A stretch of 32,000 bases of DNA from Candidatus Saccharimonadota bacterium (GCA_016699955.1 CP064993.1:480001-512000); one strand, 5' to 3'; counted from the first letter of the stretch, positions 5,823 to 29,908 are shown. The notes: generated from the letters alone by a model not told the origin. A program made the numbers and translations.

Positions 5823-5849
5823 ATGTATTGGATAATAAAACAAAATAAT

Positions 5850-6761: not shown

Positions 6762-6765
6762 AATA

Positions 6766-7695: not shown

Positions 7696-7777
7696 TAGAC
7701 TCACGCAAAACTTCCGCCGCCTACAGACCCGCTACGAGCGGCTTATAAGTAACTTCTTTTGCTGTGGTAGCCGGCAG

Positions 7778-8188: not shown

Positions 8189-8283
8189 ATATTTCCTCTA
8201 GTTCCTTATTTTCAAGTTATGATTTCTCTTTGGAGACTATACAGGGGTGAGAAGAGATTGTAAAGTGTGCCGCCTGTTTTTAT

Positions 8284-8313
8284 TTGCGAAAAGCTTGCGC
8301 TTGGTGATATGAT
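8284..8313 (+). promoter_or_regulatory. promoter candidate TTGCGA-18 nt-(TGa)TATGAT
   Basis: TTGCGA lies at 8284-8289 and an extended -10 TGATATGAT at 8305-8313. The predicted transcription start is downstream of GTG 8316, which favours ATG 8358 as the start codon. Confidence 0.4.
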
Positions 8314-8357
8314 AGGTGCGGAAAACTCTGTTCAAAAATCAAACAACCAAACAATCA

Positions 8358-10175: not shown

Positions 10176-10877
10176 ATGCTACTGCTGATGCAGGGCGTAT
10201 TACTAATTGATAAGCCGAAAGGCTGGACATCGTTTGACGTTGTCAACTATGTGCGTAAACAAGTAGCAGCGCTGGAAGGAAAAAAACCGAAAAACTGTAA
10301 GGTAGGCCATGCGGGTACGCTCGACCCACTGGCAACAGGTCTACTAGTGCTTATGATTGGCAAAGAATATACACGGCGGTCGGCAGAACTCAGTAAACAT
10401 GACAAAACATATGTTGTTACCATGAAGCTCGGTGAAACGTCAACGACGGGTGACGACGAGGGGGAGAAGAACCCTGTTAGTACCCGCATCCCAAGTAAAA
10501 GTGAGGTGGAAAAAGCTTTGCAATCGTTTGAGGGCGAGAGCATGCAAATACCTCCAGCGTATTCGGCAATAAAGATTCACGGCCAACGAGCCTACAAGCT
10601 CGCTCGTACAGGCAAGCCAGTTGAGTTGGAGCCGAGGCGTGTTACTATTTACAAAACTCAGTTAACAGAATATTCATACCCATTTGTTCACTTTATGTGC
10701 GATGTTAGCAGCGGCACATATGTTCGGTCGCTGGTTGAGGATATTGGCGCTCAGTTAGGAACCGGAGCGTATATGTCTGATCTACAGCGTACCCGTGTCG
10801 GAGAGTATAAACTCGATATGGCGACAGGTGTAGATGATGATAACTTCGTTTCGCATGTGTTTGAAATAGTAACATAA
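10176..10877 (+). CDS. truB: tRNA pseudouridine(55) synthase TruB
   Basis: GVLLIDKPKGWTSFDVV and KVGHAGTLDPLATGLLVLMIG (catalytic Asp motif) are present, together with PPAYSAIKIHGQRAYKLAR. Confidence 0.9.
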   Translation: MLLLMQGVLLIDKPKGWTSFDVVNYVRKQVAALEGKKPKNCKVGHAGTLDPLATGLLVLMIGKEYTRRSAELSKHDKTYVVTMKLGETSTTGDDEGEKNPVSTRIPSKSEVEKALQSFEGESMQIPPAYSAIKIHGQRAYKLARTGKPVELEPRRVTIYKTQLTEYSYPFVHFMCDVSSGTYVRSLVEDIGAQLGTGAYMSDLQRTRVGEYKLDMATGVDDDNFVSHVFEIVT

Positions 10878-10880: not shown

Positions 10881-10910
10881 TTGACATGGAGGGCAGTAGC
10901 GTTTTATGAT
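10881..10910 (+). promoter_or_regulatory. sigma70-like promoter candidate (TTGACA-18 nt-TATGAT) at the start of the accessory cluster
   Basis: TTGACA lies at 10881-10886 and TATGAT at 10905-10910. An AAGGGG Shine-Dalgarno lies about 7 nt before ATG 10974. Confidence 0.4.
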
Positions 10911-10973
10911 ACAACTAACGTTTCATACGTGTAGCTACAGTCAGTATAGTAAAAGCAAAAAAGGGGCAAGCAT

Positions 10974-12497
10974 ATGGCATCACGATTACCAACACCAGGA
11001 GGGGATGACGGTACCTGGGGGGCCATCCTAAACGATTATTTAGCACAGGCACATAAAACCGATGGTTCCCTGAAGGATAACGTCGTCACCGCTGCCGCTT
11101 TGGCTTCAGGTGCAGTAACTGCAGTGGGAATCGCCGATGCGACTATTTCTGAAGCAAAACTTGACTCAGCACTTCAGGTTAAGGTGAACGGTCTTGGCGG
11201 AGGCGGTTCGTTGACGCTTGCCGGTGATGTAACAGGTGCAAGTACAGCAACAGTTGTCGGTAAGGTGAACGGAGTAACTGTCTCGGGTGTACCAACAAAC
11301 GGTCAAGTTCTGACGGCATCTGGTGGTACTGCCGCAAGTTGGCAGACGCCTGCAGCTGGCGGTGGCGTGACTAGTGTAGCTGGTAAGACCGGAGTCGTTA
11401 CGTTGGCTGCTGGTGATGTTGCATCGGGAACCTTTACAGCGGCTCGACTTGGTTCGGGTACAGCAAATAACACGACGTATCTCCGTGGTGATGGCACATG
11501 GGCTGCAGTCTCGGGTGGCGGTGCGGTAACGACTGTTGCCGGACGTACCGGCGATGTTGTTCTCACGAAAACCGATGTTGGCCTTGCAAATGTTGACAAC
11601 ACAAGTGACGCGAGCAAACCTGTTTCAAGTGCAACTCAAACTGCTCTTAATGGCAAATCTGACACAAGCCACACGCACACGCTTGACGCTTTAAGCGACG
11701 TGAGTGCATCTGGAGCTAATGACGGACAGTCGCTCGTCTATAACGGTGGCACTTGGGGTCCCGGCACTGTCGGGACGGGTGGATCTGTCATCGATGCAAC
11801 CACCACTAACAAAGGTGTAGTACAACTCGCCGGAGATCTCGGTGGAACGGCCGCATTGCCAACAGTTCCAGGTCTAGCCGGAAAAGCAGACACGGCTCAT
11901 ACTCACGCTGCAGCTGATATTGCTTCTGGTACAGTAGCGACCGCTAGGCTCGGGTCAGGTACGGCCGATAACACTACTTTCCTACGGGGTGATGGTACAT
12001 GGGTAGCACCAGCGGGCGGCACTGTCGCTGACGCTTCGCCATCGACAAAGGGTATCGTCCAACTTGCCGGAGATTTGGCTGGTTCGGCCACGTCACCTAG
12101 CGTCGCGAAAGTGAATGGTGTAGCAGTGAGTGGAACGCCATCTGCCGGACAAGTCCTGAAAGCCACTAGTGCCTCTGCTGCCTCATGGCAAGCTGACGCT
12201 ACGGGTGGCGGAGGTAGCTCTTGGAATTTTGTATCGGTCAGCGCGAACTCGACCGCCTCAAACGGTGATTATGTACTGGTTGATACCTCGACCGTCGGAG
12301 TGACTATTACCTTGCCTGTCGCTGTAAGCGGTGGAGTTGTGCGGGTAAAACGCATGACAGCCGGTTCTAATAGTGTTCAGATGGTTCCTCAAGCACCAGC
12401 TCTAATTGATGGTTCGGGTGTCGGCTCAGACGTACTGGGTAACCAATGGGATTCAATGGAATATGTCAGTGATGGTACTAACTGGTACAGAGGATAA
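10974..12497 (+). CDS. phage tail-fibre / receptor-binding-protein-like repeat protein (type-1 C-terminal knob)
   Basis: The N-terminus is MASRLPTPGGDDGTWGAILNDYL. Internal motifs are VGLANVDNTSDASKPVSSATQTAL, G(V/I)VQLAGDLGGTA, LRGDGTW (x2), HTH and KVNGV.VSG.P..GQVL (x2). All are typical of actinophage minor-tail/fibre proteins. The Gly/Thr/Ala-rich protein has no signal peptide. Its C-terminus ...VRVKRMTAGSNSVQMV...YVSDGTNWYRG is shared with the 13127-14649 gene. Confidence 0.8.
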   Translation: MASRLPTPGGDDGTWGAILNDYLAQAHKTDGSLKDNVVTAAALASGAVTAVGIADATISEAKLDSALQVKVNGLGGGGSLTLAGDVTGASTATVVGKVNGVTVSGVPTNGQVLTASGGTAASWQTPAAGGGVTSVAGKTGVVTLAAGDVASGTFTAARLGSGTANNTTYLRGDGTWAAVSGGGAVTTVAGRTGDVVLTKTDVGLANVDNTSDASKPVSSATQTALNGKSDTSHTHTLDALSDVSASGANDGQSLVYNGGTWGPGTVGTGGSVIDATTTNKGVVQLAGDLGGTAALPTVPGLAGKADTAHTHAAADIASGTVATARLGSGTADNTTFLRGDGTWVAPAGGTVADASPSTKGIVQLAGDLAGSATSPSVAKVNGVAVSGTPSAGQVLKATSASAASWQADATGGGGSSWNFVSVSANSTASNGDYVLVDTSTVGVTITLPVAVSGGVVRVKRMTAGSNSVQMVPQAPALIDGSGVGSDVLGNQWDSMEYVSDGTNWYRG

Positions 12498-12512
12498 GGG
12501 AAGGATAAAAAT

Positions 12513-12992
12513 ATGCCATTTACAGGAACAGGTACCGGAATACAAAACGCAAATGATGTCTTTTTCAGTGGCGTGGCACAGGATAACGTTTTAAAATTCA
12601 ACAATACAACTGCCAAGTGGAATAACACTCCTGTGGTCGGTTTCTCAGCACTCGCCTATAATGGCGGTCTGGAAACAGTATCTACCCAGACGAGTACTGC
12701 TTCCACGACACTTAACCTTAGTAACGGTAATGTCTTTAATGTCACACTAGCTGTTGCGACGACGACGTTTACATTTAGCGGTGCGACTGCTGGTAGAGCT
12801 TGCTCTTTTGCGGTCTACCTGAAACAGGATGCTAGTGGTAACCGCGCAGTCACATGGCCAGCTTCGGTAAAATGGTCAGGTGGTGCACCGACGTTAACTA
12901 CGAGTGCGAACGCAATCGATATTGTCGTGTTTGAAAGTATCGACGGGGGAACGACGTGGTTCGGCTCTCTTGTAGGTACCAACTTTGCCTAA
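12513..12992 (+). CDS. short fibre-module protein (MPFTGTGTG N-terminal tag + phage-like C-terminal domain)
   Basis: The protein starts MPFTGTGTGIQNANDVFF. The C-terminal part ...FAVYLKQDASGNRAVTWPASVKWSGGAPTLTTSANAIDIVVFESIDGGTTWFG resembles a domain common at the ends of phage tail/fibre proteins. An AAGGGAAGGA Shine-Dalgarno lies upstream. Confidence 0.75.
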   Translation: MPFTGTGTGIQNANDVFFSGVAQDNVLKFNNTTAKWNNTPVVGFSALAYNGGLETVSTQTSTASTTLNLSNGNVFNVTLAVATTTFTFSGATAGRACSFAVYLKQDASGNRAVTWPASVKWSGGAPTLTTSANAIDIVVFESIDGGTTWFGSLVGTNFA

Positions 12993-13023
12993 GAGTAGGG
13001 ATTTGGGATGTTCAAGCTCTATT

Positions 13024-13052
13024 ACTACTACACCATTTGACGGTGTAGTAGT
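13024..13052 (+). terminator. stem-loop (11-bp perfect stem, 7-nt loop) downstream of 12992; no U-tract
   Basis: ACTACTACACC (13024-13034) pairs with GGTGTAGTAGT (13042-13052). No T-run follows, so terminator function is uncertain. Confidence 0.3.
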
Positions 13053-13126
13053 GCGTATACGGGACATATGTTATCCGGGCGATCGTACTTATTCACAATT
13101 AGTAACCTAACAACTGGAGCATATTT

Positions 13127-13679
13127 ATGCCATTCACAGGAACCGGCACCGGCATCCAAAACGCAAACGACGTATTCTTCAGCGTCCTTGCTCAAGACCA
13201 TATCCTTCGTTATGACAACGCTACTGCCAAATGGATTAATATTCCTCTCTCAGTAGCGACAACAGCCCTAACCGATAACTCAGTTACCGAACCAAAGCTA
13301 TCTATTAGCAACGCACCTACTACCAACTACGTCCTTAGCTGGAATGGTTCAGCCATGACCTGTGTTGCTCAAGCCACTGGAGCCGATGCAACCACTACCA
13401 CAAAGGTATTGTCCAACTAGCCGGTGATCTCGCTGGTACTGCTGCTGCACCAACTGTACCAGGACTGGCTGGTAAAGCAGCGACGGTGCATACGCATGCT
13501 CAAGCTGACGTCACAGGACTAGTCGCTTCACTTGCCGCCAAAGAGGCGACAATCACAGCTGGGACTACTTCTCAATATTATCGTGGTGATAAATCATGGC
13601 AAACCCTAGATAAGTCAGCTGTTGGCCTTGCTAACGTCGATAATACTTCAGATGCTAGTAAACCGGTTTCGACTGCGAC
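13127..13679 (+). repeat. copy A of a 553/554-bp near-identical dispersed repeat (5' part of fibre gene)
   Basis: Base-by-base comparison with 21019-21572 shows 2 substitutions (13363 T vs G; 13384 C vs A) and one 1-nt indel (A3 vs A4). Confidence 0.9.
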
Positions 13680-14649
13680 AACTACAGCGCTTTCAGGCAA
13701 GGTGGATAAATCGACAGCGACATCCAAGGGCGACTTGTTGGTGGCAACAGCAGCCTCGACACTTACGCGTCAAGGGGTAGGCCTAAACGGACAGATACTC
13801 ACGGCCGATAGTACCCTCGCTAACGGAATAAAGTGGGCAGATCCAATCGTAAGTTCGGTTGCGGGTAAAACAGGAGTTGTCACGCTCGTCAAAGGCGACG
13901 TCGGCCTTGCAAACGTCGATAACACGTCAGATGCTAGCAAGCCGGTTTCGACCGCCACACAGACTGCTCTTGATTTGAAAGTCGACGAGACCATAAGCGT
14001 GACTGGTGCTACTTCTCTGACCGGTGGCGGCGTCCTTACAGCCAATCGAACTCTTACCCTTGTCAATGACGCGGCCACACCTGGCAACAACAGATACTAC
14101 GGTACGGACGGCACAGGCACAAAAGGGTTTTATACTATTCCGGCAGGTGACCCAAGTATGGGCGGCGACTTAACTGGCACTGCTAGCACTGCGCAGATAG
14201 CTGCCAATGCCGTCACGGCGACAGAAATAGCTAGTAATGCGGTCACGACAATAAAAATTCTTGATAGTAACGTCACTGAACCGAAGTTGGATGTAGCTAA
14301 TAGTCCTTCAACCGGCCAGGTACTGAGCTGGGATGGTACAAACATGGCTTGGGCTGGTGCACTGGCATTTGCATTTACAAAAGTCAGTGTCTCGACGAAC
14401 TATACAGTTACAGCTTCGTTTCAGTATGTGTTAGCAGATGCTACAGCAACTGGGATTACTATTACGCTTCCTGCTCCACAAAATAACGCATATGTACGCG
14501 TGAAACGAATGTCGACTAATGCAAATAGCGTACAGGTTGTGGCTCCGGCTGGTTCTTTTCTTGATGCACCTGCAGTAGGCTCGGACGTACTGAATAACGC
14601 TTATGACAGCGCTGAATACTGGAGCGACGGAACAAACTGGTATAGGTAG
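13127..14649 (+). pseudogene. tail-fibre-like gene split by a 1-nt deletion (ORFs 13127-13420 and 13486-14649)
   Basis: The first 553 nt are near-identical to 21019-21572. The intact paralog has CCACAAAAGG where this copy has CCACAAAGG (A3 at 13402-13404), which shifts the frame. Downstream the second frame continues the same protein (GIVQLAGDLAGTAAAPTVPGLAGKAATVHTHAQADV...). It ends with a type-1 knob (...VRVKRMSTNANSVQVV...YWSDGTNWYR). Confidence 0.8.
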
Positions 14650-14824
14650 AAACTAAGTTATTGTTCGTTGCCGCTGTAGCTGCATGTATGAGTACTGTTT
14701 AGCTGGATGATTTTGTGGATGCAGACTCAACCGGTCGGCTAGTGCCGCAGCTAGTCAGGGAATACCCTCGACTTGTATGGTTGGTAGGTTGGTGGGATGA
14801 ATATGGGTATGTATTATTAATACC

Positions 14825-15654
14825 ATGAGCATAACAACAAGACGGCTACAAAGAACCCAACAGACAACCTCAGCAATCTGGCCAGATGCGACCAATACTG
14901 GTTACAGAGGAACGCTGACAAATTACAGCGGCGGCTCGTCAATTCTCGTTAGCACAACTCTGGTGAATAAGAGGATTTCAACAGCGCTTCAGGTCTTTTC
15001 GGGAGCGACACTCACACTAAACAACTGCTGGGTGGATGGTGGCTTTATTGATGGTGATTATGCCGATCAACCGATCACCCTTACTGACTGCCAGATTGAT
15101 GCTGGAGAGTGGCAGGGGGCGGCGGTGACGGGGTACAACATTCACATTACACGCTGTAACATCACTGGTGCTCAGCATAGCGTTTTGGCCTCAGATAATG
15201 TCACGGTAGAAGACAGTTGGCTACATGATCAGTACGGTGGCCCAGTCGGCAGCTCTTATCACAATAACGCTTTTATTTCGAACGGTGGCAGCAATATCAT
15301 GGTGAGGCATAATCGGTTGGATTGTTCGGTACCGCTGAATGGTTCGGGTGGTGGACCAACCGCCGATGCTTCAATCTTGGTGATTTTGCTACGATGACCG
15401 ATGTCACTTTCGATAACAATCTTTTTATGCCAACAACTGGCGGCTACGGTGGTACATTTGGCTATAATCCGGCTAAGCCATACGGGAGCAACCCGAGCTA
15501 TATTGTAGTTACAAACAATGTCTTCCAGCGCGGCCCGACCGGCATATGTGGTGTCTACGGCACAGTCACGTCTTTTTTGAGTAGTGGAACGGGTAATGTT
15601 TGGTCTAACAATACCTACGAAAACGATGGCACGATCATACCACCTGCCGAGTAA
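14825..15654 (+). pseudogene. right-handed beta-helix (pectate-lyase-fold) protein, frame-disrupted (ORFs 14825-15397 and 15322-15654)
   Basis: It is a paralog of the intact 19010-19921 gene and of 16202-17286 (WPDATNTGY; SWLHDQ...YHNN; NNLFMPTTGGYGG; NNVFQRG). The two ORFs overlap at 15322-15397 and the downstream frame is offset by -1. The junction is likely near CTTGGTGAT (about 15377-15385). Confidence 0.7.
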
Positions 15655-15750
15655 ATTTTCTCTGACTACCTCCTCAAATAGCAATATTCTTTTGCCGCTG
15701 AATATATTCACCACATTTACCGCTGGTAGGATTATGCTAAACTGGAAACC

Positions 15751-16191
15751 ATGAGCAGGTTTGCACAGAGGCTTAGGAGTGCAGTTGGAAAAGGCGGTGT
15801 GCTATATTTATCGCCTATGTCCGGCAGTTATAGCGGCGGTTCGACGGTAAACGTGGCTATCCGTATGACAAGTGGCAGCACGCTTGTTAATACTGTACAG
15901 GCAAATCTTACTTACCCTACCGCTCAGCTGCAATTTGGCAGTATCAGTACTGTCGGTAGTCCGTTTACGACCACAATTCAGAGCAACGGCGGAAGTGGTT
16001 CTGTCCAGCTTGGCGTCGGCATATTGGCTGGTTCGACTTTTGGTGATCAGCTCGTAGGGGTTATTACGTTTACTGCGACTGCTGCTGGTGCTGCGACAGT
16101 GACTTTTAACGCTGGTTCTGGTATTGCCAGAACTGCCGATGCAGTCGATATCTGTACTCAAAAGCGCGGAGCAGCGTATACAATAACCTAA
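15751..16191 (+). CDS. cohesin-like domain protein (MS-R-F-x-Q-R-L N-terminal tag, no signal peptide)
   Basis: LSPMSGSYSGGSTVNVAIRMTSGSTLVNTVQANLTYPTAQLQFGSISTVGSPFTT...VGVITFTATAAGAATVTFNAGS follows the cohesin layout: a first strand with a selected set, then 'Y(D/P)...L.F' and 'i.F.a...G.a.l.f'. Confidence 0.55.
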   Translation: MSRFAQRLRSAVGKGGVLYLSPMSGSYSGGSTVNVAIRMTSGSTLVNTVQANLTYPTAQLQFGSISTVGSPFTTTIQSNGGSGSVQLGVGILAGSTFGDQLVGVITFTATAAGAATVTFNAGSGIARTADAVDICTQKRGAAYTIT

Positions 16192-16201
16192 GGACTAGAT
16201 C

Positions 16202-17286
16202 ATGCTCTATCATAAAATCCAAAAAGCCATCCGTATTCACAGCCTTAGCCCCGTTCTAGTAGTGGCTGGTTGCCTAGCCTTAACAGTTAGCGTGGTTGTC
16301 TGGGCGGCCAATGTCTATACCAGTCTAGAGACAGAAAGTGGTACTGTTGCAACCGCCATAGTTGTCGGTGATGCGTCGGCTTCAGGTGGTCAGGCGGTTA
16401 AGTTCGGGGCGGCTGGTAGCTGTACCTATGCTGGTCATGTACCCGATGGAACTGATGGCTTTGGCGGTTGTTGGCCGGGGCCGAACAATACGGGCGTACC
16501 GGATGGTACTACGCTAACCAACTATACCGGCCCCTGCACAATCACCACCAATAACACTGTAATTGACGCTAAAACGGTTAACTGCGATCTGCATGTTAGG
16601 GCACAAAATGTTACTATCACGAGATCTATGATCAATGGCTATATTGAAACCTCTAATGATAGTGGCACTTCTTATAATTACGCAGTGACAGATAGCACAA
16701 TTCACGTTGCTGATATTAATTATCGCGGTTTATTGTACTCAGACTACATTGCCACTAGAGTGGATGTTTCTGGCGGGCAAAGTATGGCTTGGTGTGACAC
16801 TTGTACAATTCAAGACTCATATCTCCATAACCCACTTGAGGATCCCGAGGAGCAGCTGCCAATCACGCCGCTCATAATTCTACAGTTCGTGTTTCAAAAT
16901 ATGCAAATCTCATACACAATACTTTGTGGTGTAATGTAGTTGAGTACCCTCAACCAGATGGGTTGGATGCCTCGGGATGTTCGGCAAATCAAACTGCCTA
17001 TAGTCATGACGGCGCACCTCCCTACAACAGCACCATAGAGAAGAACCTTTATATGCCGACGACAGGCGGGTACTGCGCTTATGGTGGTTCTACATCTGGA
17101 GACCTAGCTGCGGTACACGATATTGTCTTTAAGGATAATGTATTTAAACGGGGTACAGTGCAAGGCGAAAACAACCGTGGCTTTGTCTGTGGGTATTGGG
17201 GACCGATAACGAGTTTTGATAGTAACCGGCCAGGCAATCAATGGATTAATAATAGATGGGATGACGGCACTATCTTGCTGCCGTAG
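16202..17286 (+). pseudogene. membrane-anchored/secreted right-handed beta-helix protein, frame-disrupted (ORFs 16202-16939 and 16924-17286)
   Basis: An N-terminal hydrophobic anchor (LSPVLVVAGCLALTVSVVVWA) is present. CWPGPNNTGVPDGTTLTNYTG and SYLHNP match the paralogs. After DP (about 16841-16850) homology continues in the -1-offset frame (GAAANHAAHNSTVRVSKYANLIHNTLWCNVV...KNLYMPTTGGYCAYGG). A C-run at 16844-16846 is a plausible site of a 1-nt loss. Confidence 0.7.
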
Positions 17287-17306
17287 AATTGAAGAAAGAA
17301 GATCGT

Positions 17307-18155
17307 ATGAGATTACCAGCTGTTGATTACTTAAAAACAAAATGGAAAGCAAAAATATCGCGAAAAGTGATGGTTGTTATGGCTTTCCTAACAATTCTAG
17401 TCATGCCATCGTTGGTAGTATATATGACAACATCTGAGTCACAACAAGTCCTACCGGCAACGTCGATGGGCAATATGTATCTAGCACCGGAGGCGCCGCA
17501 AGCCAAGCAAGGTGATCCTTTGGCTGTCAACGTGCGGATTGAACCTGGTACGCCGATAGATACAGTGGTCGCAAGGCTACAATTTAACCCCGACCAGTTG
17601 ACCTATACATCGGTTTCGTATCAAAATTCACCATTTGCTACCCAAATACCGATAGTCGTCACCAGCAACCGCGTCACGGTAGAGAGTGCAAAATTTGGTA
17701 ACGGCCCCGTGACGGCTGATTCGTTGATTGCGCAGGTCACATTTACTGCCAAACAAACTGGAGTAGCGGAACTGACGCTAAGTGGTGACGCTGCCTATGC
17801 TGGTGTGGCCACTCACCCGACAATTATGGGCGAGGTAGTACCCATAACTACAAGTAACTCCACGCCAGCTTCGGCTGGGCAACCAGTTACAGGTGTAGCT
17901 AGGCAAACTGAAACGGCATCCAGGACTACTGCTAGCGCACCAGTACAATTAACCAAGTCTCTTCTAACTTCGATAGGTCTTTCCGAATACAAAGCCGCAG
18001 CAGTCGCGCCTGTGTTAGCAATTTGTCTCGGTGTTTGTGTGGCTAGTGGCTTCGGCTATGCGCTTTACCGCTTTCTTGCTAGGCGTCGACGTGTACTGGG
18101 CTTAGATAAAAATAAACCCATTATTCACAAACAGGGAGACAATCATGTCGAATAA
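17307..18155 (+). CDS. cohesin-like domain protein with N-terminal signal/anchor and C-terminal transmembrane anchor
   Basis: The N-terminal hydrophobic segment is VMVVMAFLTILVMPSLVVYM. The cohesin-like core reads MYLAPEAPQAKQGDPLAVNVRIEPGTPIDTVVARLQFNPDQLTYTSVSYQNSPFAT...AQVTFTAKQTGVAELTLSGDA. An S/T/P linker is followed by the C-terminal TM segment VAPVLAICLGVCVASGFGYALY and then RFLARRRR. ATG 17307 is preferred over TTG 17289 because of the GAAGAAAGAAG upstream. Confidence 0.6.
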   Translation: MRLPAVDYLKTKWKAKISRKVMVVMAFLTILVMPSLVVYMTTSESQQVLPATSMGNMYLAPEAPQAKQGDPLAVNVRIEPGTPIDTVVARLQFNPDQLTYTSVSYQNSPFATQIPIVVTSNRVTVESAKFGNGPVTADSLIAQVTFTAKQTGVAELTLSGDAAYAGVATHPTIMGEVVPITTSNSTPASAGQPVTGVARQTETASRTTASAPVQLTKSLLTSIGLSEYKAAAVAPVLAICLGVCVASGFGYALYRFLARRRRVLGLDKNKPIIHKQGDNHVE

Positions 18156-18807
18156 ACTACAGCTGTACTGGAGTAAATTTGCTCTGGCACTCGTTAGCGT
18201 GGTTATGGTGGTTGCAGCCGTACCAACGCCATCGGTGTACGCCGCTGCTTGTACGCCGCCAGGAACCAATTACGGTACGGTAACTCAAACATCCAACATC
18301 AGCTCGGCCGGCACCTACCGCATCTGGACGCGAATGGCGGCAGCTAATAGCACGGACAATACTGTTCTGCTCGAAATCGATGGCAACACTTGCTATGTCG
18401 TAGGTGGTAGCAGCGTCCCGACCTATGCCAGTGGCGCTACAAATTACTTCGTTAACAACAAGACAAACTGGATCAGTAAGACTACTGGCGGGACAAATAT
18501 AGACGTATCTTTTACTACGGGCAATCACACAGTAAAGCTAATCGGCAATGGTCCGGGTGTTGTAATTGACCGAGTGCTGCTTACCAAAGACACTACATGT
18601 ACCCCGACAGGTACTGGCAGTAACTGCGCCAGCATCTACTTTGCGGCTGATATCGATCAAAACGGTAGCGTCAACTTCCTAGACTTTAGCCGTCTCGCGA
18701 GCAAATACAACCAAAGTGGGGGTGGCTTGGGGCGGACCGATATTAACCTCGATGGCACGGTTAGCTTTTTAGACCTTAGTCTGATGGCCAACACCTATGG
18801 CCAGTAA
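18145..18807 (+). CDS. secreted CBM-like domain protein with C-terminal dockerin (two EF-hand-like repeats)
   Basis: The signal peptide is ...LALVSVVMVVAAVPTPSVYAAA. The CBM-like pattern is AGTYRIWTRMAAANSTDNTVLLEIDG...FTTGNHTVKLIGNGPGVVIDRVLL. The dockerin duplicates are DIDQNGSVNFLDFSRLASKY and DINLDGTVSFLDLSLMANTY (about 18645-18804). Its start overlaps the stop of the preceding cohesin gene. Confidence 0.7.
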   Translation: MSNKLQLYWSKFALALVSVVMVVAAVPTPSVYAAACTPPGTNYGTVTQTSNISSAGTYRIWTRMAAANSTDNTVLLEIDGNTCYVVGGSSVPTYASGATNYFVNNKTNWISKTTGGTNIDVSFTTGNHTVKLIGNGPGVVIDRVLLTKDTTCTPTGTGSNCASIYFAADIDQNGSVNFLDFSRLASKYNQSGGGLGRTDINLDGTVSFLDLSLMANTYGQ

Positions 18808-19009
18808 ATATATACTTGCAAAAAACTCCCCCTCAGACTTATGTAGGAGCATACATATGCCGCTTTTTTCGGTTTGGGGTTTACGGGCTCTACCTTCCCC
18901 AGACAAACCGCTTTCTGGTTTACTCTTGGCCGACCCCGAAGACGTTGGGGTTTTCGTAAGTCGAGTCAAGGCGATTGGTCATCTGAGGTGAATTTAATAC
19001 ACTAGGATT

Positions 19010-19921
19010 ATGAGTAGTTTTACCAGACGAATACAACGAGTTCCTGCGGTTTCTCCGCCGGCACTGGGTGGCTGGCCAGATGCGACGAACACTGGACCGG
19101 AAGCTGCTGGCTACACCAACTTAACCGCCTGGACAGACGGCTACCTGATCGGACCGACCTATTCAAACACGGTGATCAGTGGCAAGATTTTCGACGGCAT
19201 TGGGCCTCAGGTGACCGGAAACAACGTAACATTTCGTGGTTGTATCATTCGAGAAACGTATCCCAATGGTTTTTTGTTGCGACTGGACGGCACGAACACG
19301 ACATTCGAAGATTGCCGGTTTACGCCCGCAGTTGGTGTGATGCCCCCGGTGAGTTTGGCGGCCTCATATCAGCAGGGAATCAAAATGATCAATGGTGTCG
19401 GCCTTACGGTCCGGCGATGTGAGTTTTGGGGCTTTGGAAATGCTATCGAATTTGAACCATCGAGCGCAACCCAGGCTAACCCGATTCTTGTAGAGGACTG
19501 TTGGATGCACGACGCGGCCGACCAGAGTGGTGATACTTATCATCACGACGGTATATTGTCGTCTTATGCATCGTCATGGGTGAGTGTTGATCACTGTCGG
19601 ATAGTCTCCGGCGGCAACACTAACGCCATCGCTTTCCAGTCAACTGGAGGCCAATGGTCGAAAATTGTAGTGAACAACTGTTTGCTCGGCGGGTTTGGAT
19701 ATACAGTCAATATTGGCGATAGTTTTGGTGGTAATAACATTACCCTTACGAACAATGTGTTTGACACATCTATAGTATGTGACTGGGGTCCATTTAAAAA
19801 TGATTGGTCAGGGTTTACTGGCACAAATGTATGGCAGGGGAACACTTGGGACACGGGGGGTTACTGGTGGCCAACAGATGGCGCTTCGACTGGCGGGCAT
19901 GGTTCTGACTGGGCAGGATAA
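19010..19921 (+). CDS. right-handed beta-helix (pectate-lyase-fold) protein, intact paralog
   Basis: The N-terminus is MSSFTRRIQRVP...GGWPDATNTGP. Repeating N-x-T-F/V-x-x-C turns are present, with CWMHDAADQSGDTYHHDG and NNCLLGG / LTNNVFD. It has no signal peptide. Confidence 0.75.
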   Translation: MSSFTRRIQRVPAVSPPALGGWPDATNTGPEAAGYTNLTAWTDGYLIGPTYSNTVISGKIFDGIGPQVTGNNVTFRGCIIRETYPNGFLLRLDGTNTTFEDCRFTPAVGVMPPVSLAASYQQGIKMINGVGLTVRRCEFWGFGNAIEFEPSSATQANPILVEDCWMHDAADQSGDTYHHDGILSSYASSWVSVDHCRIVSGGNTNAIAFQSTGGQWSKIVVNNCLLGGFGYTVNIGDSFGGNNITLTNNVFDTSIVCDWGPFKNDWSGFTGTNVWQGNTWDTGGYWWPTDGASTGGHGSDWAG

Positions 19922-19959
19922 GCTAGATTACCGCTAATCTGAGCTATATAATAGTTACC

Positions 19960-20856
19960 ATGAGCAGGTTTACGAGACGGCTTCAACAGGGAGTGAGTGG
20001 CTTTAGCGACAGTTTGCGACCAGCTGCGCCGATAATTACCAGCAGCGCTACTGCAACAACTACTACACCGACCATCAATGGGACGGCTGAGCTTGGGACA
20101 ACTGTAGAGATCAGCATAAATAACCATGTATATTCTAGTTCGACCAACGGTAGTGGAGTATGGTCAATCGTAGTCGTAGATACGCTGACACAAGGCAATG
20201 CCTATACGTTGACAGCTTCAGCTCGCAATGCAGCTGGATATGTTTCTAAAGTTGCAGCAACTCAAAACCTGACAGTCAGCGGCTCCGCTGGCACGTTTGC
20301 TGGTACAAAGGTCGCGATCATCGGTGACTCTTTGACCTATCAGGCAGATAATGGTCAATATGATATACCGGCGGCCTTTACCTCGGCTGGCTGGCCAACT
20401 GATGCTACCTGGTTTTACTCTTGGGACGGCAAGAAAATAGCCGAGTCAGATTGGGGCAATCTTACTACCATGCAAAATATTGCGCAATGTCGTTTGGATA
20501 TTGGCGAGCCAGATGTTTGGGTTATTGCGCTTTGTACAAATAATGGTAGTGACTCGGTGCAAAAAATAACTAGCGATATGCAACTGGTATTTAATGCACT
20601 TGGCTCGTCGGCACGCCTACTCTGGGTCAATAAAGGTGATTGGTGGGTTCCACCCGATTCAGACATTAACAATACTATCGCCTCGATGATATCGTCACGA
20701 CCATATTCAATGTTAGCTGACTGGTACAGTGTTGTCGAAAATACTGCCGATCAAACCAACTGGTGGACAGACGGAACTCACATGACAAGATACGGCTACT
20801 CAATACGCAATAATTTCATCGCTGCTAAATCGGTAGAACTTTTTAACCAGGGATAA
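19960..20856 (+). CDS. bacterial Ig-like domain + SGNH/GDSL hydrolase (esterase/deacetylase-type)
   Basis: The N-terminal tag is MSRFTRRLQQ. The Ig-like segment is PTINGTAELGTTVEISINNHVYSSSTNGSGVWSIVVVDTLTQGNAYTLTASARNAAGYVS. SGNH block I is VAIIGDSLTYQ and block V is WWTDGTHMTRYGY. A TATAAT box at 19947-19952 lies 7 nt upstream of the ATG and there is no Shine-Dalgarno. Confidence 0.75.
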   Translation: MSRFTRRLQQGVSGFSDSLRPAAPIITSSATATTTTPTINGTAELGTTVEISINNHVYSSSTNGSGVWSIVVVDTLTQGNAYTLTASARNAAGYVSKVAATQNLTVSGSAGTFAGTKVAIIGDSLTYQADNGQYDIPAAFTSAGWPTDATWFYSWDGKKIAESDWGNLTTMQNIAQCRLDIGEPDVWVIALCTNNGSDSVQKITSDMQLVFNALGSSARLLWVNKGDWWVPPDSDINNTIASMISSRPYSMLADWYSVVENTADQTNWWTDGTHMTRYGYSIRNNFIAAKSVELFNQG

Positions 20857-20959
20857 TATAACCGAGCTTGGCCTACTTAAAGAGCTGAAATAATCCATTG
20901 ATTAATCTTGGTAGCCCTGAAGACGCTAATGTTGATGGTGTTTTGGTCTGTGCGCTTCC

Positions 20960-21073
20960 AATATCTCTGTTATAATCATAACCAGTTAAACTATTATCTA
21001 AAGGGAAGTGAGACAACTATGCCATTCACAGGAACCGGCACCGGCATCCAAAACGCAAACGACGTATTCTTCA
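20960..21073 (+). repeat. copy 1 of a perfect 114-bp repeat (promoter + 5'UTR + first 18 codons)
   Basis: By direct comparison it is identical to 22981-23094. Confidence 0.9.
20968..20976 (+). promoter_or_regulatory. extended -10 promoter element TGTTATAAT
   Basis: It matches the TGnTATAAT consensus exactly, 42 nt upstream of ATG 21019. It lies inside the ORF-track N-terminal extension (TTG 20908), which is therefore rejected. Confidence 0.5.
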
Positions 21074-21572
21074 GCGTCCTTGCTCAAGACCATATCCTTC
21101 GTTATGACAACGCTACTGCCAAATGGATTAATATTCCTCTCTCAGTAGCGACAACAGCCCTAACCGATAACTCAGTTACCGAACCAAAGCTATCTATTAG
21201 CAACGCACCTACTACCAACTACGTCCTTAGCTGGAATGGTTCAGCCATGACCTGGGTTGCTCAAGCCACTGGAGCAGATGCAACCACTACCACAAAAGGT
21301 ATTGTCCAACTAGCCGGTGATCTCGCTGGTACTGCTGCTGCACCAACTGTACCAGGACTGGCTGGTAAAGCAGCGACGGTGCATACGCATGCTCAAGCTG
21401 ACGTCACAGGACTAGTCGCTTCACTTGCCGCCAAAGAGGCGACAATCACAGCTGGGACTACTTCTCAATATTATCGTGGTGATAAATCATGGCAAACCCT
21501 AGATAAGTCAGCTGTTGGCCTTGCTAACGTCGATAATACTTCAGATGCTAGTAAACCGGTTTCGACTGCGAC
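21019..21572 (+). repeat. copy B of the 553/554-bp near-identical dispersed repeat
   Basis: See 13127-13679. This copy carries A4 and keeps the reading frame. Confidence 0.9.
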
Positions 21573-22887
21573 GCAGACTGCCTTAAACGCCAAGGCTAGC
21601 ACAACAACAACCATAACTGGGACTACTTCACTAACAGGAGGCGGCGACTTATCTGCTAACCGAACACTAACGCTTGTCAATGACAACGCAAGTCCAGGTG
21701 CTGATAGGTACTATGGTACAAATGTTGGCGGTACGAAGGGTTGGTATGCACTTGCAGGTGGTGGCTCATCAGGGCAGTTTGGCTACATCTTCCTTGACGA
21801 TCAAGCCGGTGCTACTGACGATGATAAACTGACCGCTGCCATTGCCGCACAGCAATCTACCAACGGTATGCCACCTATTGTACTAGGTGCCAGGAGTCAT
21901 TCCTTTAACCAGACTCGTACTCTATACTCTGGGCTTAAGCTTATAGGCCAATCTACTGGTCCAAAAAACCTTGAACAAAACCCTAACTTTGTAACCTCTC
22001 GTATTGTACTAGGTGCGGCAGTCTCATCAGGCGCAAGCAGTTGGTGGGTGACCCCAGGAGGAAACTTATTTGACATATACATGGCAGATTTTGCTGTAAA
22101 CGGTAACGAAGGCGCCTCTGTCCACCAGTTCATGGATGTAAACAGTGGAACACTATACGCGTGTGAGTTCCATAGCTTGGCATTTGACTTCATGCGATCA
22201 GTATTGGGACGCAAAGATCGCACCTTCTTAATGACACAAGTTGTACTTTCTGGCCACTGGACAGCAAATAATCTGTGGGATACGCAGTTTCACCTCGGTG
22301 GGTCAGATAACTCACTGTGGATGGGTGGCATGATTAACATGGGACCATCAGCATCCCCAGCACAGACAGGAACCTATGCCGATAATGATTACGAATTTAT
22401 GTTTAACAATATGTCAAAGACAAATGTAGGGTACATATACATGACTGCACTTAACGGATGGCGAGGTATTCGTGTTCAAGGAACTTCTTCTTTCCTGACG
22501 TTCTATGGTGGTGTATATGAGGGTTACAACGCGGGGACACCTGCACCGGGTACAGTTATACGTCTTGAAGGTGGAGTTGGTTCATTCTATGGTCCTAACA
22601 TCGGTCAGGGAATGGGCAGCCCGGATGCGGCTGAAGGTGGTCTTGTTCACATCACCGGTGGTGAATGGAACTTCTACGGACCGATATTTTACCGAGGTAA
22701 CATGACAGACACAACCCCTTGTATCTACCAATCTGGGGGCCGTGTTCACGTCACAGGGGCAACACGCCGCCAGAGTGAGACTTGGACTGCACGCCCTGTA
22801 CTAGATACTGGAGCTGCAGGTGGAAATACAGCTGGTACAGGAACCTACACGACATACGTTCCCGATCTTTCTATGAACGTCACCTAA
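21019..22887 (+). CDS. tail-fibre-like protein with tailspike/depolymerase-like beta-helix C-terminal domain (mosaic gene)
   Basis: The protein starts MPFTGTGTGIQNANDVFF and carries the fibre motifs GIVQLAGDLAGTAAAPTV, HTHAQADV, YYRGDKSW and VGLANVDNTSDASKPVSTATQTAL. The C-terminal 365 aa or so (AGATDDDKLTAAIAAQQ...) are homologous to the C-terminus of 23040-24491. An AAGGGAAGTGAG Shine-Dalgarno is present. Confidence 0.8.
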   Translation: MPFTGTGTGIQNANDVFFSVLAQDHILRYDNATAKWINIPLSVATTALTDNSVTEPKLSISNAPTTNYVLSWNGSAMTWVAQATGADATTTTKGIVQLAGDLAGTAAAPTVPGLAGKAATVHTHAQADVTGLVASLAAKEATITAGTTSQYYRGDKSWQTLDKSAVGLANVDNTSDASKPVSTATQTALNAKASTTTTITGTTSLTGGGDLSANRTLTLVNDNASPGADRYYGTNVGGTKGWYALAGGGSSGQFGYIFLDDQAGATDDDKLTAAIAAQQSTNGMPPIVLGARSHSFNQTRTLYSGLKLIGQSTGPKNLEQNPNFVTSRIVLGAAVSSGASSWWVTPGGNLFDIYMADFAVNGNEGASVHQFMDVNSGTLYACEFHSLAFDFMRSVLGRKDRTFLMTQVVLSGHWTANNLWDTQFHLGGSDNSLWMGGMINMGPSASPAQTGTYADNDYEFMFNNMSKTNVGYIYMTALNGWRGIRVQGTSSFLTFYGGVYEGYNAGTPAPGTVIRLEGGVGSFYGPNIGQGMGSPDAAEGGLVHITGGEWNFYGPIFYRGNMTDTTPCIYQSGGRVHVTGATRRQSETWTARPVLDTGAAGGNTAGTGTYTTYVPDLSMNVT

Positions 22888-22922
22888 ACATTTCCTAGCA
22901 ATCTAGTAAATTTAAATGATAA

Positions 22923-22960
22923 TTAACCCCAGCTCGGCGCTTACAGCTAGCTGGGGTTAA
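22923..22960 (+). terminator. stem-loop terminator candidate (12-bp perfect stem)
   Basis: TTAACCCCAGCT (22923-22934) pairs with AGCTGGGGTTAA (22949-22960) around a 14-nt loop. TCCATAATCTTTTC follows. It lies between the stop at 22887 and the next promoter. Confidence 0.5.
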
Positions 22961-22980
22961 TCCATAATCTTTTCACTTCT

Positions 22981-23094
22981 AATATCTCTGTTATAATCAT
23001 AACCAGTTAAACTATTATCTAAAGGGAAGTGAGACAACTATGCCATTCACAGGAACCGGCACCGGCATCCAAAACGCAAACGACGTATTCTTCA
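22981..23094 (+). repeat. copy 2 of the perfect 114-bp repeat (promoter + 5'UTR + first 18 codons)
   Basis: It is identical to 20960-21073. Confidence 0.9.
22989..22997 (+). promoter_or_regulatory. extended -10 promoter element TGTTATAAT
   Basis: This is the same element as 20968-20976, 42 nt upstream of ATG 23040. Confidence 0.5.
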
Positions 23095-24491
23095 ATGTCC
23101 TTGCTGATGGCCAGATCCTTGAGTACAACAGTACGACTGCGAAATGGGTTAATGCCGCAAATACCAGCGACCCAGTACTTGGTGGTGATCTGACTGGCAC
23201 TGCCAGCAATGCTCAGATAGCTGCCAATGCCGTCGGCACTACTCAAATCGCTGACGGAGCAGTAACCGAACCAAAACTAGGCGCCAGCAACGCGCCGAGT
23301 ACCAACCAAGTACTGAGCTGGGATGGCTCTAATATTACCTGGGTGACACAAAGCACGGGGGTAGATGACGGAACAAGGTTGCTTGATTCATTTGCTGGTG
23401 CGACCGACGACGACAAACTGACTGCTGCTATTGCCTGGCAGCAGGGACATTCTCGCATGCCTGCGATTCGCTTAGGTTCGCGTATTCATACGTTTAACCA
23501 AACGAGGCAGCTGTATAGTGGCCTCAAGATTATTGGTACACCGGCAGGTCCTCGCAACCTCGAGCAAAGTGGCGGTGTGTTTGTACCGACCAGGATCAAC
23601 CTCGGAGCAGCCATATCGTCTGGTGCGAGTTCATGGTGGGTCACACCTGGAGGAAACTTGTTCGATATATATATGGCTGATTTTGCGGTTTCCGGTAATG
23701 CGGGATCATCCGTACACCAATTTATCGATGTCACTACGGGTTCCCTATATGCCTGCCAGTTCCATGCACTGAGTTTCAACTTTATGCGGAGCGTTTTTGG
23801 ACGCAAGGATCGCAAATGCTTGGTGACGCAAGTTATATTTTCTGGCCACTGGACGGCAAATAACCTGTGGGACACACAGTTCATGCTCGGTGGTGCTGAC
23901 TGTAATCTCTGGATGGATGGTTTCTTAAACATTGGCCCGAGTTCGAGCCCTGCACAAACCGGTACCTATGCAGACAATGACTACGAACTCATTTTTGACA
24001 GCCTGAGCAAGACCAACGTAGGTTATATCTTTATGTCAGCTCTCAACGGCTGGCGTGGCCTCAAGGTTTCCGGCAGTGCCGGTCACGGACTTCGTTTTTT
24101 CGGCGGAACCTACGAAGGCTATAAAAGTAGCAACGACAACCTCGCCGCACCAGGTACGGTTATTCGACTAGAGGGAGGCAAAGGAGCATTCTTCAGCCCA
24201 AGCCTCGGCCAGGGCATGCAAAGTCCAGATGCTGCCGAGCTAGGCCTCGTACACATAACTGGTGGGGAGTGGGCGTTTTACTCACCGACTTTTTATCGCA
24301 CACCAGCTGCCGATACTGTGCCGATGATCTATGTTTCTGGAGGCCGTGTATTGGTAGAAGGTGCTACACGCAACGACGACCAAGAAGCTTGGACAACACG
24401 TCCGAAGTATCTTCTCGGAGGGGGAGTGGCGACTGGTCCGAACAGTGGTGAAAATGTTTTCTACTGCCCAGATATGTCGATGGTTCCATAA
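23040..24491 (+). CDS. short fibre-module protein with tailspike/depolymerase-like beta-helix C-terminal domain
   Basis: The N-terminus is MPFTGTGTGIQNANDVFF, followed by GGDLTGTASNAQIAANAV and VTEPKLGASNAPSTNQVLSWDGSNITW. The C-terminal domain begins AGATDDDKLTAAIAWQQ and includes SSWWVTPGGNLFDIYMADFAV, SGHWTANNLWDTQF and APGTVIRLEGG. It is paralogous to 21790-22884. Confidence 0.8.
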   Translation: MPFTGTGTGIQNANDVFFNVLADGQILEYNSTTAKWVNAANTSDPVLGGDLTGTASNAQIAANAVGTTQIADGAVTEPKLGASNAPSTNQVLSWDGSNITWVTQSTGVDDGTRLLDSFAGATDDDKLTAAIAWQQGHSRMPAIRLGSRIHTFNQTRQLYSGLKIIGTPAGPRNLEQSGGVFVPTRINLGAAISSGASSWWVTPGGNLFDIYMADFAVSGNAGSSVHQFIDVTTGSLYACQFHALSFNFMRSVFGRKDRKCLVTQVIFSGHWTANNLWDTQFMLGGADCNLWMDGFLNIGPSSSPAQTGTYADNDYELIFDSLSKTNVGYIFMSALNGWRGLKVSGSAGHGLRFFGGTYEGYKSSNDNLAAPGTVIRLEGGKGAFFSPSLGQGMQSPDAAELGLVHITGGEWAFYSPTFYRTPAADTVPMIYVSGGRVLVEGATRNDDQEAWTTRPKYLLGGGVATGPNSGENVFYCPDMSMVP

Positions 24492-24517: not shown

Positions 24518-24880
24518 CTAACGAGTTGACTCAATCAGTGATTGTATGTCATTTCTTTGTCTAGTAAAACCGGCATAAACCACTGTTGTATCGTCGGTCG
24601 ATGCAAGCAGTTGCTCGGCTTGTTGGACGTTCAGCACGCGTGCAGTGACTTTGATATGAAGCACGGCATCGATCATACGCTCAACACCTTGCTCAAGGCT
24701 CTGCGTATCGGGATTTGGTGAGATAAATGTGACATCTCCGGTCGGTTCATAGACATGTTCATCGTGGAGTGAAAAAGTATGAAAAGTATAGGCGATTCGC
24801 TCAACAGGAACCACCAACCCAGAATCATTCTTAATACCATCGAGTAAAACTAAGTAACGATACCATGTGCTTTCATCCAT
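24518..24880 (-). CDS. hypothetical protein (120 aa)
   Basis: It is the only long ORF here. It converges on the end of the fibre cluster and is divergent from the phosphoesterase gene. I recognise no motif. Confidence 0.45.
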   Translation of the reverse strand: MDESTWYRYLVLLDGIKNDSGLVVPVERIAYTFHTFSLHDEHVYEPTGDVTFISPNPDTQSLEQGVERMIDAVLHIKVTARVLNVQQAEQLLASTDDTTVVYAGFTRQRNDIQSLIESTR

Positions 24881-24940
24881 GTTTTCACTATAACACCTAA
24901 TACAAACATATGCGCTATAATGTATCTAAAGGGGAAAAGT

Positions 24941-25876: not shown

Positions 25877-25943
25877 TTGTCTTTTCGAGCTTGCTACTAC
25901 CTGACAAACTGACCGTTTTCACTTTATCGAAACGTTCGCAACA

Positions 25944-27017: not shown

Positions 27018-27099
27018 GCAACATTTACTATTCAAAGAAATGAGTGTATAAGTATGTATATTAGTGCAGGGTAATAAGTGCGTGGGAAGGGAGTAGACA

Positions 27100-29905: not shown

Positions 29906-29908
29906 GAA

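Follow-up and report, generated by a model that had tools for sequence, protein, structure and literature searches.

Organization of the cluster

We analysed one 32,000-nucleotide (nt) window of a Candidatus Saccharimonadota genome (GCA_016699955.1, CP064993.1:480001-512000), all coordinates being counted from the window start. After the gene truB, an uninterrupted plus-strand run at 10974-24491 (the cluster) comprises 15 open reading frames (ORFs), which correspond to 12 genes, three of them split by single-base frameshifts. Five genes encode fibre or tailspike-like proteins (F1-F5), three encode short beta-helix proteins (BH1-BH3), two cohesin-like proteins (Coh1 and Coh2), one a dockerin protein and one a protein with an immunoglobulin (Ig)-like and an SGNH-like domain (Ig-SGNH; Table 1). 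The sequence places the organism in the Saccharibacteria: truB and the genes next to it match metagenome-assembled genomes of this group at 58-79% identity, and BH3 and Ig-SGNH are 100% identical to proteins recorded at NCBI under ‘Candidatus Saccharibacteria bacterium’ (IPL85_02595 for Ig-SGNH). The G+C content is 48-49% across the whole window, with 0.490 in the cluster versus 0.480 in the left flank.

An earlier reading of the window, made from the sequence alone (the sequence-only reading), is partly confirmed by this analysis. Its domain calls agree with our scans of the window ORFs against Pfam and PHROG. The 14 co-directional genes that it counted after truB do form a co-directional run, of 12 genes rather than 14. 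It had set the borders at 10881 and 24491; the right one does not stand, as the block continues to at least 31846, with an rve transposase just outside the former limit. The promoter-like element that it described right after truB is present (TTGACA-18-TATGAT at 10881-10910), and a second one, with an extended -10 box, lies upstream of F5. The ~50 nt from the -10 box to the ATG are nearly identical upstream of F4 and F5 (repeat family D1). Promoters were called by consensus match only, those of Saccharibacteria not being characterised.

Modular fibre and tailspike-like proteins

F1 to F4 match DUF5907, PTR or many PHROG tail fibre and minor tail protein families. F1 is detected by DUF5907 (E 2e-12) and PTR in Pfam and by minor tail and tail fibre families in PHROG, and among the matches to its repeats are minor tail proteins from phages that infect Gordonia, Arthrobacter, Microbacterium and Rhodococcus; F2 matches phrog_9017 (tail fiber, E 1e-22). 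F5 yields only a sub-threshold DUF5907 match and two PHROG families of unknown function, and it is grouped with the fibres because it contains the common N-terminus and a beta-helix. The proposal of five tail-fibre-like proteins therefore holds for F1-F4 by their profiles and for F5 by its N-terminus and fold.

The fibres are built in a modular manner. F2-F5 begin with the same ~40 residues (MPFTGTGTGIQNANDVFF...), with the adapter motif GIQNANDVFF, unlike F1, which has a conserved start of its own. Three types of tip are found: a small one (type A; F1 and F3), a phage tail-fibre tip (type B; F2) and a large beta-helix (type C; F4 and F5). Modular exchange is seen most directly in F3 and F4, which are common over ~555 nt from the exact ATG, with two substitutions and a 1-nt indel, after which the tips diverge. 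A diversity-generating retroelement was rejected, as no reverse transcriptase occurs among the scanned ORFs and the F3/F4 differences are not adenine-specific.

F4 and F5, the C-terminal domains of which are 67% identical, are fibre N-termini fused to a large beta-helix, an arrangement of the tailspike type. In the AlphaFold2 (AF2) model of F5 (predicted local distance difference test (pLDDT) 86), residues 110-483 form the beta-helix, and its best Foldseek matches are CBA120 TSP3, Depo32, an alginate epimerase and PfbA, in addition to phage pectate-lyase-type tailspikes. The F5 family contains 193 homologues with 14 invariant positions. Every named one belongs to Saccharibacteria, on contigs of up to 1.2 Mb, and some members carry signal peptides resembling those of the twin-arginine translocation (Tat) pathway. 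Sorting 120 F5 homologues by composition and N-terminal regular expression into actinobacterial and saccharibacterial origin was uninformative.

The tip of F2 (residues 50-159) is, by sequence comparison, a tail-fibre tip common among phages: 383 IMG/VR stretches encode proteins 41-57% identical to it, and it is also found in 401 phage records; the adapter part of F2 is unmatched in these same stretches and records. More generally, the C-terminal domains and repeats of the cluster proteins are present in viral collections, and the adapter GIQNANDVFF has 0 matches in 2.9 million IMG/VR contigs. F5 and BH3 gave no tblastn match in 50,697 phage genomes. When metagenomes were scanned for this motif, four short contigs were all that came back. 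At another locus (L279 1797-3161, plus strand) the adapter is fused directly to a different, pectate-lyase-like start (NVRDYGVKADGTTDDT), and at a further one (L277 1256-4105, minus strand) an adapter fibre adjoins a 445-aa protein starting MSRFAQRIRS.

A second short N-terminus, of the MSxFTRRLQR type, heads BH1, BH3, Ig-SGNH and Coh1, that is, three different domain types. A similar N-terminal strand is found on phage-encoded homologues of the beta-helix proteins; among the homologues of the SGNH protein, one starts MSRFARHLQR and another has a signal peptide instead. The motif was considered as a Tat signal and rejected, given that no hydrophobic region follows it, that the phage homologues carry a similar strand and that the region is disordered in the AF2 model. 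Phages are able to hang several receptor-binding proteins (RBPs) on one docking site by means of common short N-termini.

Beta-helix, cohesin, dockerin and SGNH-type proteins

The three beta-helix proteins are paralogues, as the sequence-only reading had proposed (BH1 and BH2, 30% identity, E 9e-19; BH1 and BH3, 28%, E 2e-12). The AF2 model of BH3 has a pLDDT of 91.7, with the first 18 residues disordered, and its Foldseek matches include tailspikes, GH110, GH87 and PfbA. Both F5 and BH3 are predicted by these models to have the right-handed parallel beta-helix fold. Within the BH3 family H167, D168, H178 and D180 are invariant or nearly so, but catalytic residues could not be assigned. The models are of monomers; the beta-helix proteins may cleave polysaccharides. 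The hydrophobic N-terminus of BH2 is readable directly in the translation.

Two cohesin-like proteins had been called and both are retained: Coh2 lies marginally over the PF00963 cut-off (24.3 versus 24.1 bits), and Coh1, without a Pfam match of its own, is assigned by homology to the cohesin domain of Coh2 (31% identity, E 2e-11). With hydrophobic segments near both ends, Coh2 is a candidate membrane-anchored scaffold. In the protein described as carrying a carbohydrate-binding module (CBM) and a dockerin, the dockerin is confirmed, its two DxDxDG calcium-binding loops being readable in the sequence of the Dockerin_1 domain, and the CBM is not, the only support being a weak GH115_C-like beta-sandwich match (E 0.002).

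Ig-SGNH had been read as an Ig-containing SGNH esterase. The Ig part is recovered by Big_13, and the SGNH part falls below the Pfam cut-off (Lipase_GDSL_2, 18 bits versus 32.9), with an alignment that spans the full model. The assignment is backed by the GDS, TN and DxxH blocks (G122-D123-S124, T193-N194 and D271/H274), which are invariant in 12 homologues, 7 of them carrying PF13472. Sequence searches of the PDB with Ig-SGNH and Coh1 returned nothing useful. A role in anti-phage defence was also considered and rejected, PADLOC giving no match for ten proteins (nine of the cluster and the neighbouring 120-aa protein).

Regarding the frameshifts, the one in F3 lies near 13402, where AAA is found versus AAAA in the near-identical F4 copy, one A short in an A-run. 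The frame changes near 15375 in BH1, as located by tblastn against BH3, and near 16850 in BH2. The three events fall within 4 kb, whereas the remaining large ORFs of the window showed no sign of being split. A related complete genome, CP064992, contains a split homologue of the 645-aa beta-helix gene of the window, which fits the frameshifts being assembly errors, without proving it.

Table 1. Features of the cluster and its surroundings (positions counted from the window start)
Feature	Position	Strand	Description
truB	10176-10877		Pfam TruB_N, E 7e-48
Promoter-like element	10881-10910	+	TTGACA-18-TATGAT between truB and F1; 11/12 consensus matches
F1	10974-12497	+	507-aa fibre; N-terminus MASRLPTPGGDDGTWGAILNDYL, DUF5907/PTR repeats, small C-terminal type A tip
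F2	12513-12992	+	159-aa short fibre; adapter MPFTGTGTGIQNANDVFF and type B tail-fibre tip
F3	13127-14649	+	507-aa fibre after 1-nt correction; adapter, repeats, type A tip
BH1	14825-15654	+	276-aa short beta-helix after one correction; N-terminus MSITTRRLQR; Pfam Beta_helix, E 3e-4
Coh1	15751-16191	+	146-aa cohesin-like; N-terminus MSRFAQRLRS; without signal peptide
BH2	16202-17286	+	361-aa beta-helix after one correction; N-terminal membrane anchor or signal sequence
Coh2	17289-18155	+	288-aa cohesin-domain protein; hydrophobic segments near both ends
Dockerin protein	18145-18807	+	220-aa secreted; signal peptide, beta-sandwich (CBM-like), type-I dockerin, E 4e-8
BH3	19010-19921	+	Intact 303-aa short beta-helix; N-terminus MSSFTRRIQR; Pfam Beta_helix, E 6e-10
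Ig-SGNH	19960-20856	+	298 aa; Ig-like (Big_13, E 5e-6) and SGNH-type domain; N-terminus MSRFTRRLQQ
F4	21019-22887	+	622-aa tailspike-type from ATG 21019; adapter, repeats, C-terminal type C beta-helix; DUF5907
Promoter-like element	22970-22997	+	Extended -10 (TGTTATAAT); upstream of F5
F5	23040-24491	+	483-aa tailspike-type; adapter, one fibre unit, type C beta-helix
120-aa protein	in 24518-31846 block	-	
Metallophos	24920-25876	+	Metallophosphoesterase (Pfam)
Insertion sequence (IS)-type DDE transposase	25954-26934	-	rve and HTH_23; PHROG transposase, E 1e-27; between Metallophos and the 864-aa gene
864-aa protein	27100-29694	+	Beta-propeller-like
645-aa protein	29909-31846	-	DUF1565/beta-helix

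The truB junction in related genomes

For a comparison of synteny, 80 truB loci were fetched. In ~45 related loci truB is followed by rpsO-pnp, with a gap of 45-130 bp in about half of them and of up to 4.9 kb in the rest. Neither rpsO nor pnp was found within the 32-kb window, and therefore at least 21 kb occupy the truB|rpsO-pnp junction of this organism. The cargo of the gap differs between related genomes, in agreement with a check proposed with the sequence-only reading, namely whether the block after truB is variable. One genome (L001) contains exactly the orthologues of F1, F2 and F3 between truB and rpsO, and nothing else, the F3 orthologue being intact (464 aa), and a metagenome contig (L278) shows the order truB-F1-F2-F3, with an F3 orthologue of 453 aa. 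The F2 orthologues of these two loci are 74-78% identical to that of the window, and their truB proteins are only 69-71% identical to its truB. Overall, the fibre orthologues are 60-78% identical versus 62-71% for the neighbouring housekeeping proteins, which fits vertical inheritance within the clade.

Other gaps hold single members of the same families: one F3-like fibre and a polysaccharide deacetylase in L004, one long F1-type fibre after truB in L026 and a BH2-like gene in L040. In other genomes the gap between truB and rpsO contains unrelated genes. The deacetylase domain of L004 belongs to a 1061-aa protein (12040-15225, minus strand), another glycan-modifying gene at the same hot spot.

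F5-like genes are also found away from truB. A single one lies between grpE and dnaK in L082/L083 (L082 10001-11392) and in L281 (10001-11518), an odd conserved position inside a heat-shock gene cluster, and in L280 (2-1345) it adjoins an ORF resembling grpE.

Beyond 24491 the variable block comprises five further genes and reaches at least 31846; several of these genes recur next to F5 homologues elsewhere. In CP064992 (L081 10001-16066) an F5-like gene comes after ileS and a glutamine amidotransferase gene, and next come counterparts of the metallophosphoesterase, 120-aa and 645-aa beta-helix genes of the window; identities over this set, F5 included, are 63-88%. On a chromosome of 68% G+C, the gene order of which is of the actinobacterial type (L084, 7616-16365), the comparable trio is an F5-like beta-helix gene, a Metallophos gene (41%) and a gene for a Laminin_G/PKD protein 30% identical to the 864-aa protein. 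These recurrences hint at a block that is transferred or functionally linked.

Relatives in phages and high-G+C genomes

Four viral contigs of IMG/VR, with a G+C content of 54-70%, encode proteins that share 44-56% identity with the C-terminal domain of F4 and F5; for F4, identities over the high-G+C phage and actinobacterial-type loci together are 44-59%. Two of these contigs (64-70% G+C) were examined: the homologue is near a tape measure gene in L086 and near genes for a major head protein, an endolysin and a tail fibre in L087. The same domain is 56-60% identical to the products of two genes of the chromosome L084, where the F5-like genes adjoin a Bac_transf sugar transferase. BH3 is 66% identical to the product of a gene on a 70%-G+C phage-like contig and 46% identical to that of a gene in a Sphaerisporangium prophage, which lies a few kb from terminase, portal, protease and capsid genes; the viral contigs of the BH3 relatives are mostly of 61-71% G+C. 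One contig may be the closest phage counterpart of the cluster (L092; IMGVR_UViG_3300037119_005874, 896-8912, 61% G+C), with matches to BH3 (62%), the N-terminal part of BH2 (52%) and the F1 tip (45%), and also with a minor tail protein.

The likeness to these actinophage-like contigs and to the prophage (L086, L087, L090-L092) is one of true homology, and the N-terminal strand motif of the beta-helix proteins is kept. The setting differs: their genes have tape measure, head, portal and terminase genes in the vicinity and a G+C content of 61-71%, whereas the copies of the window are chromosomal, at 49% G+C, with the F4/F5 domain fused to a Saccharibacteria-specific adapter. The description of the cluster as phage-derived is upheld only in the sense of homology with phage tail-region and prophage proteins.

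No match to capsid, portal, terminase, tape measure, tube, sheath, baseplate or lysis genes was found with Pfam and PHROG in the large ORFs of positions 1-32000, nor any match in the window to tailocin or contractile injection genes (sheath, tube, baseplate, spike). The window contains no tRNA and no tyrosine or serine integrase, the only candidate being the DDE rve transposase, and no flanking direct or inverted repeats of at least 30 nt that would mark the block ends were found. The sequence-only reading had likewise seen no capsid, portal, terminase, tube/sheath, baseplate, integrase or lysis gene, and PHROG and Pfam show only fibre-type matches and the IS transposase.

Possible functions of the cluster

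The closest non-Saccharibacteria relatives found appear, from sequence, to lie on high-G+C contigs resembling Actinobacteria and their phages. As these nearest relatives are in actinobacterium-like or phage-like contigs, the cluster is probably a kit to grip and process the surface of a host cell. Cultivated Saccharibacteria are epibionts on Actinobacteria (PMC10633639), and therefore a common actinobacterial wall target would be the simplest link. The interpretation that we favour, with somewhat more conviction than doubt, is that of a lineage-variable chromosomal island that holds a cellular, phage-like repertoire for host recognition and glycan processing, without a virion. Of the two readings initially offered, it corresponds to the cellular, phage-derived attachment and glycan system of an episymbiont, which is favoured by the affiliation with Saccharibacteria, the synteny, the native G+C content, the lack of virion and tRNA genes in the window and the absence of the fibre adapter from IMG/VR; its export, surface location, docking, target and activity we infer.

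According to the favoured interpretation, the proteins would be displayed on, or released from, the epibiont cell. The fibres would bind cell-wall glycopolymers of the bacterial host, probably an actinobacterium, and the beta-helix and SGNH modules would cut or de-acetylate these glycopolymers. The set would do the job of the adsorption apparatus of a phage, for cell-to-cell attachment and access. The two short N-termini (MPFTGTGTGIQNANDVFF on F2-F5; MSxFTRRLQR on BH1, BH3, Ig-SGNH and Coh1) would plug the C-terminal modules onto a common partner, and the predicted cohesin-dockerin pair would provide a second docking route.

Work on cultivated epibionts bears on this interpretation. S. epibionticum cannot grow as an epibiont without certain glycan-binding proteins of its envelope, one of them with a dockerin domain, and for these the authors speculate on host glycan targets (PMC10633639). 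These proteins, SEML1_0315 (dockerin), SEML1_0891 (VCBS) and SEML1_0890 (FN3) of Southlakia epibionticum, resemble those of the window, compared by description, in being envelope proteins with polysaccharide-binding or -degrading domains, in the same phylum and with the same lifestyle (PMC10633639). In the host, genes for a cell-wall polysaccharide react to the presence of the epibiont, and phages require this polysaccharide in order to bind (PMC11032452, PMC13622651).

Several points weigh against the favoured interpretation. The matches of the beta-helix fold are generic (TM 0.3-0.5, 10-15% identity), and the fibre repeats also occur in phages with non-actinobacterial hosts (Flavobacterium, Brucella, Erwinia). 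Three of the 12 genes are frameshifted, for which decay and assembly error are both possible. A signal peptide or membrane anchor can be recognised in only three of the 12 proteins and in none of the five fibres, so the export of the other nine is unexplained. The absence of virion genes is established only up to base 32000. Finally, when the supplementary tables of the S. epibionticum transposon-sequencing (Tn-seq) study were searched by term, neither tail fibres nor tailspikes turned up among the protein descriptions, nor is an obvious orthologue listed there, and the fibre family may be missing from this, the one species with fitness data.

A close functional analogue is the mosaic adhesive trimer (MAT) system of Bdellovibrio. 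The fibres displayed by this predator are phage-like; their N-terminal domain is invariant, and prey glycans are recognised by tips that can be exchanged (PMC10769870). As in the window, the MAT proteins form a chromosomal multigene repertoire in a bacterium that lives on bacteria; phage-like fibres combine an invariant N-terminus with C-terminal tips that include beta-helix and beta-sandwich types, and the role, proposed or shown, is recognition of surface glycans (PMC10769870). The likeness is drawn from architecture, not from sequence homology, and there are clear differences. MAT fibres have a signal peptide and a conserved domain of ~130 aa, whereas F1-F5 lack a hydrophobic start and their conserved part is shorter and different. 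Many MAT fibres end in an S74 chaperone-protease, and the window has no Peptidase_S74 match in Pfam. The window fibres have DUF5907/PTR-type repeats, and their genes have those of the short beta-helix, SGNH and cohesin/dockerin proteins as neighbours. MAT fibres have been shown to be displayed on the surface, which for the window proteins would have to be assumed. The cluster is of a kind already known from Bdellovibrio and from phages; the statement that its gene combination is not a described system agrees with our literature searches, notwithstanding the MAT fibres, and searches linking Saccharibacteria with tail fiber, tailspike, minor tail protein or DUF5907 found nothing relevant.

A more specific proposal, which we put forward tentatively and consider doubtful, is that environmental Saccharibacteria took receptor-binding modules from the phages of their own hosts and use them, without a virion, as plug-in organelles for host recognition. 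Two adapters would dock fibres, beta-helices, the esterase and a cohesin on one surface partner, export would do without Sec signal peptides, and the turnover of tips at hot spots such as truB|rpsO would set the host range.

Phages provide another precedent, in multi-RBP modules such as TSP1-4 of CBA120, the depolymerases of Klebsiella phage K64-1 and the esterase tailspikes of the G7C type. With these the cluster has in common the short N-terminal anchors, the combination of repeats, beta-helix depolymerase-type domains and an SGNH esterase, and the swapping of tips. The cluster could be the distal, multi-RBP part of a prophage, intact or defective, or of a phage-derived particle of the tailocin or gene transfer agent (GTA) type, with head and tail genes beyond base 32000 or elsewhere, the fibres of which would recognise the surface attacked by the particle. 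This second reading of the two initially offered is disfavoured, and we regard it as unlikely. It would explain why the architecture is so close to that of phage RBP sets, with common N-terminal adapters, repeats, beta-helices, an SGNH domain and no signal peptides, and why homologues of both beta-helix families occur in real phage tail regions or a prophage; but at least 21 kb of the window pass without a morphogenesis, tyrosine/serine integrase, tRNA or lysis gene. The G+C content is native, the adapter is missing from the viral contigs of IMG/VR, and proteins with cohesin or dockerin domains and with signal peptides or membrane anchors are features of cellular surfaces. The variability of the region after truB and the nearby DDE transposase are compatible with a prophage, as is the fact that the contig was inspected only up to 32 kb. 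The fibre genes are nevertheless interleaved with housekeeping genes in positions kept across species: L001 has only three fibre genes between truB and rpsO, and in genomes that have diverged from one another a lone F5-like gene separates grpE from dnaK.

The proteins might also be a cellular set that processes the glycans of the organism's own envelope, its extracellular polymeric substances (EPS) or environmental polysaccharides for nutrition, as a small cellulosome-like system not involved in host recognition, which we find improbable. The cohesin, dockerin and CBM-like modules are indeed present, as a cohesin on a protein with two hydrophobic segments and a two-loop type-I dockerin on a secreted beta-sandwich protein, in the manner of cellulosomal and non-cellulosomal cohesin-dockerin systems. 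However, there is a single cohesin per protein and no multi-cohesin scaffoldin, the dockerin is borne by a non-catalytic protein and not by a glycoside hydrolase, no carbohydrate-active enzyme family typical of cellulosomes is found, the organism is not cellulolytic and cohesin-dockerin binding is only predicted. Enzymes that act on polysaccharides (lyases, hydrolases and esterases) typically have beta-helix or SGNH folds, whereas the fibre repeats and tips are of the phage adsorption type. In favour of such a set, the F5-like genes of L084 lie in a chromosomal polysaccharide locus beside Bac_transf, which suggests remodelling of a self-polymer; against it, the nearest relatives outside Saccharibacteria come from the tail regions of phages, from a prophage and from a chromosome of high G+C content. 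Saccharibacteria are, moreover, obligate epibionts, with envelope glycan-binding proteins essential in the one tested species (PMC10633639).

Finally, a decaying heap of genes, gained horizontally or by duplication, that sits at a recombination hot spot and at present serves no function, as the three frameshifted genes within 4 kb, the IS transposase in the block, the recent ~555-nt duplication and the unrelated cargo of the truB-rpsO gap elsewhere could suggest, is very unlikely, as nine genes are intact, the F1-F3 orthologues are kept in order in two genomes with such diverged truB proteins, the F5 family retains its invariant positions across its members, and errors of assembly may account for the frameshifts (an A-run is the site of one of them, and CP064992 also has a split beta-helix gene).

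Type IV pili and a few unnamed ‘adhesins’ have so far been implicated as determinants of host choice in Patescibacteria (candidate phyla radiation, CPR). As a modular and conserved family resembling phage RBPs, the proteins of the cluster are concrete candidates for host-range determinants in Saccharibacteria and Patescibacteria. If the favoured interpretation is true, they would represent a second, independent case, after the Bdellovibrio MAT fibres, of a bacterial parasite that uses phage-style adsorption proteins, and the lack of secretion signals in most of them raises the further question of their export. Should the cluster turn out to be the remnant of a prophage or cargo in decay, there is nothing unusual about it.

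Left flank of the window

The left 10.9 kb contain housekeeping genes, as had been described: fpg, an otsA-otsB fusion, holA, the gene of a DHH-family protein and truB. The DHH-family protein, encoded upstream of truB (8316-10169, plus strand), has a C-terminal tail of ~350 aa, of low complexity and rich in P, T, S and E, which is also found in related loci (42-62% identity over the full protein length). The trehalose-6-phosphate synthase/phosphatase fusion otsA-otsB (3546-5726, minus strand) occurs here in a Saccharibacterium; of the 80 truB loci fetched, only 4 contain a homologue. Two plus-strand ORFs, at 1439-3532 (697 aa) and 5775-6761 (328 aa), match nothing significantly in Pfam or PHROG, and none of the related loci contains a homologue of either.

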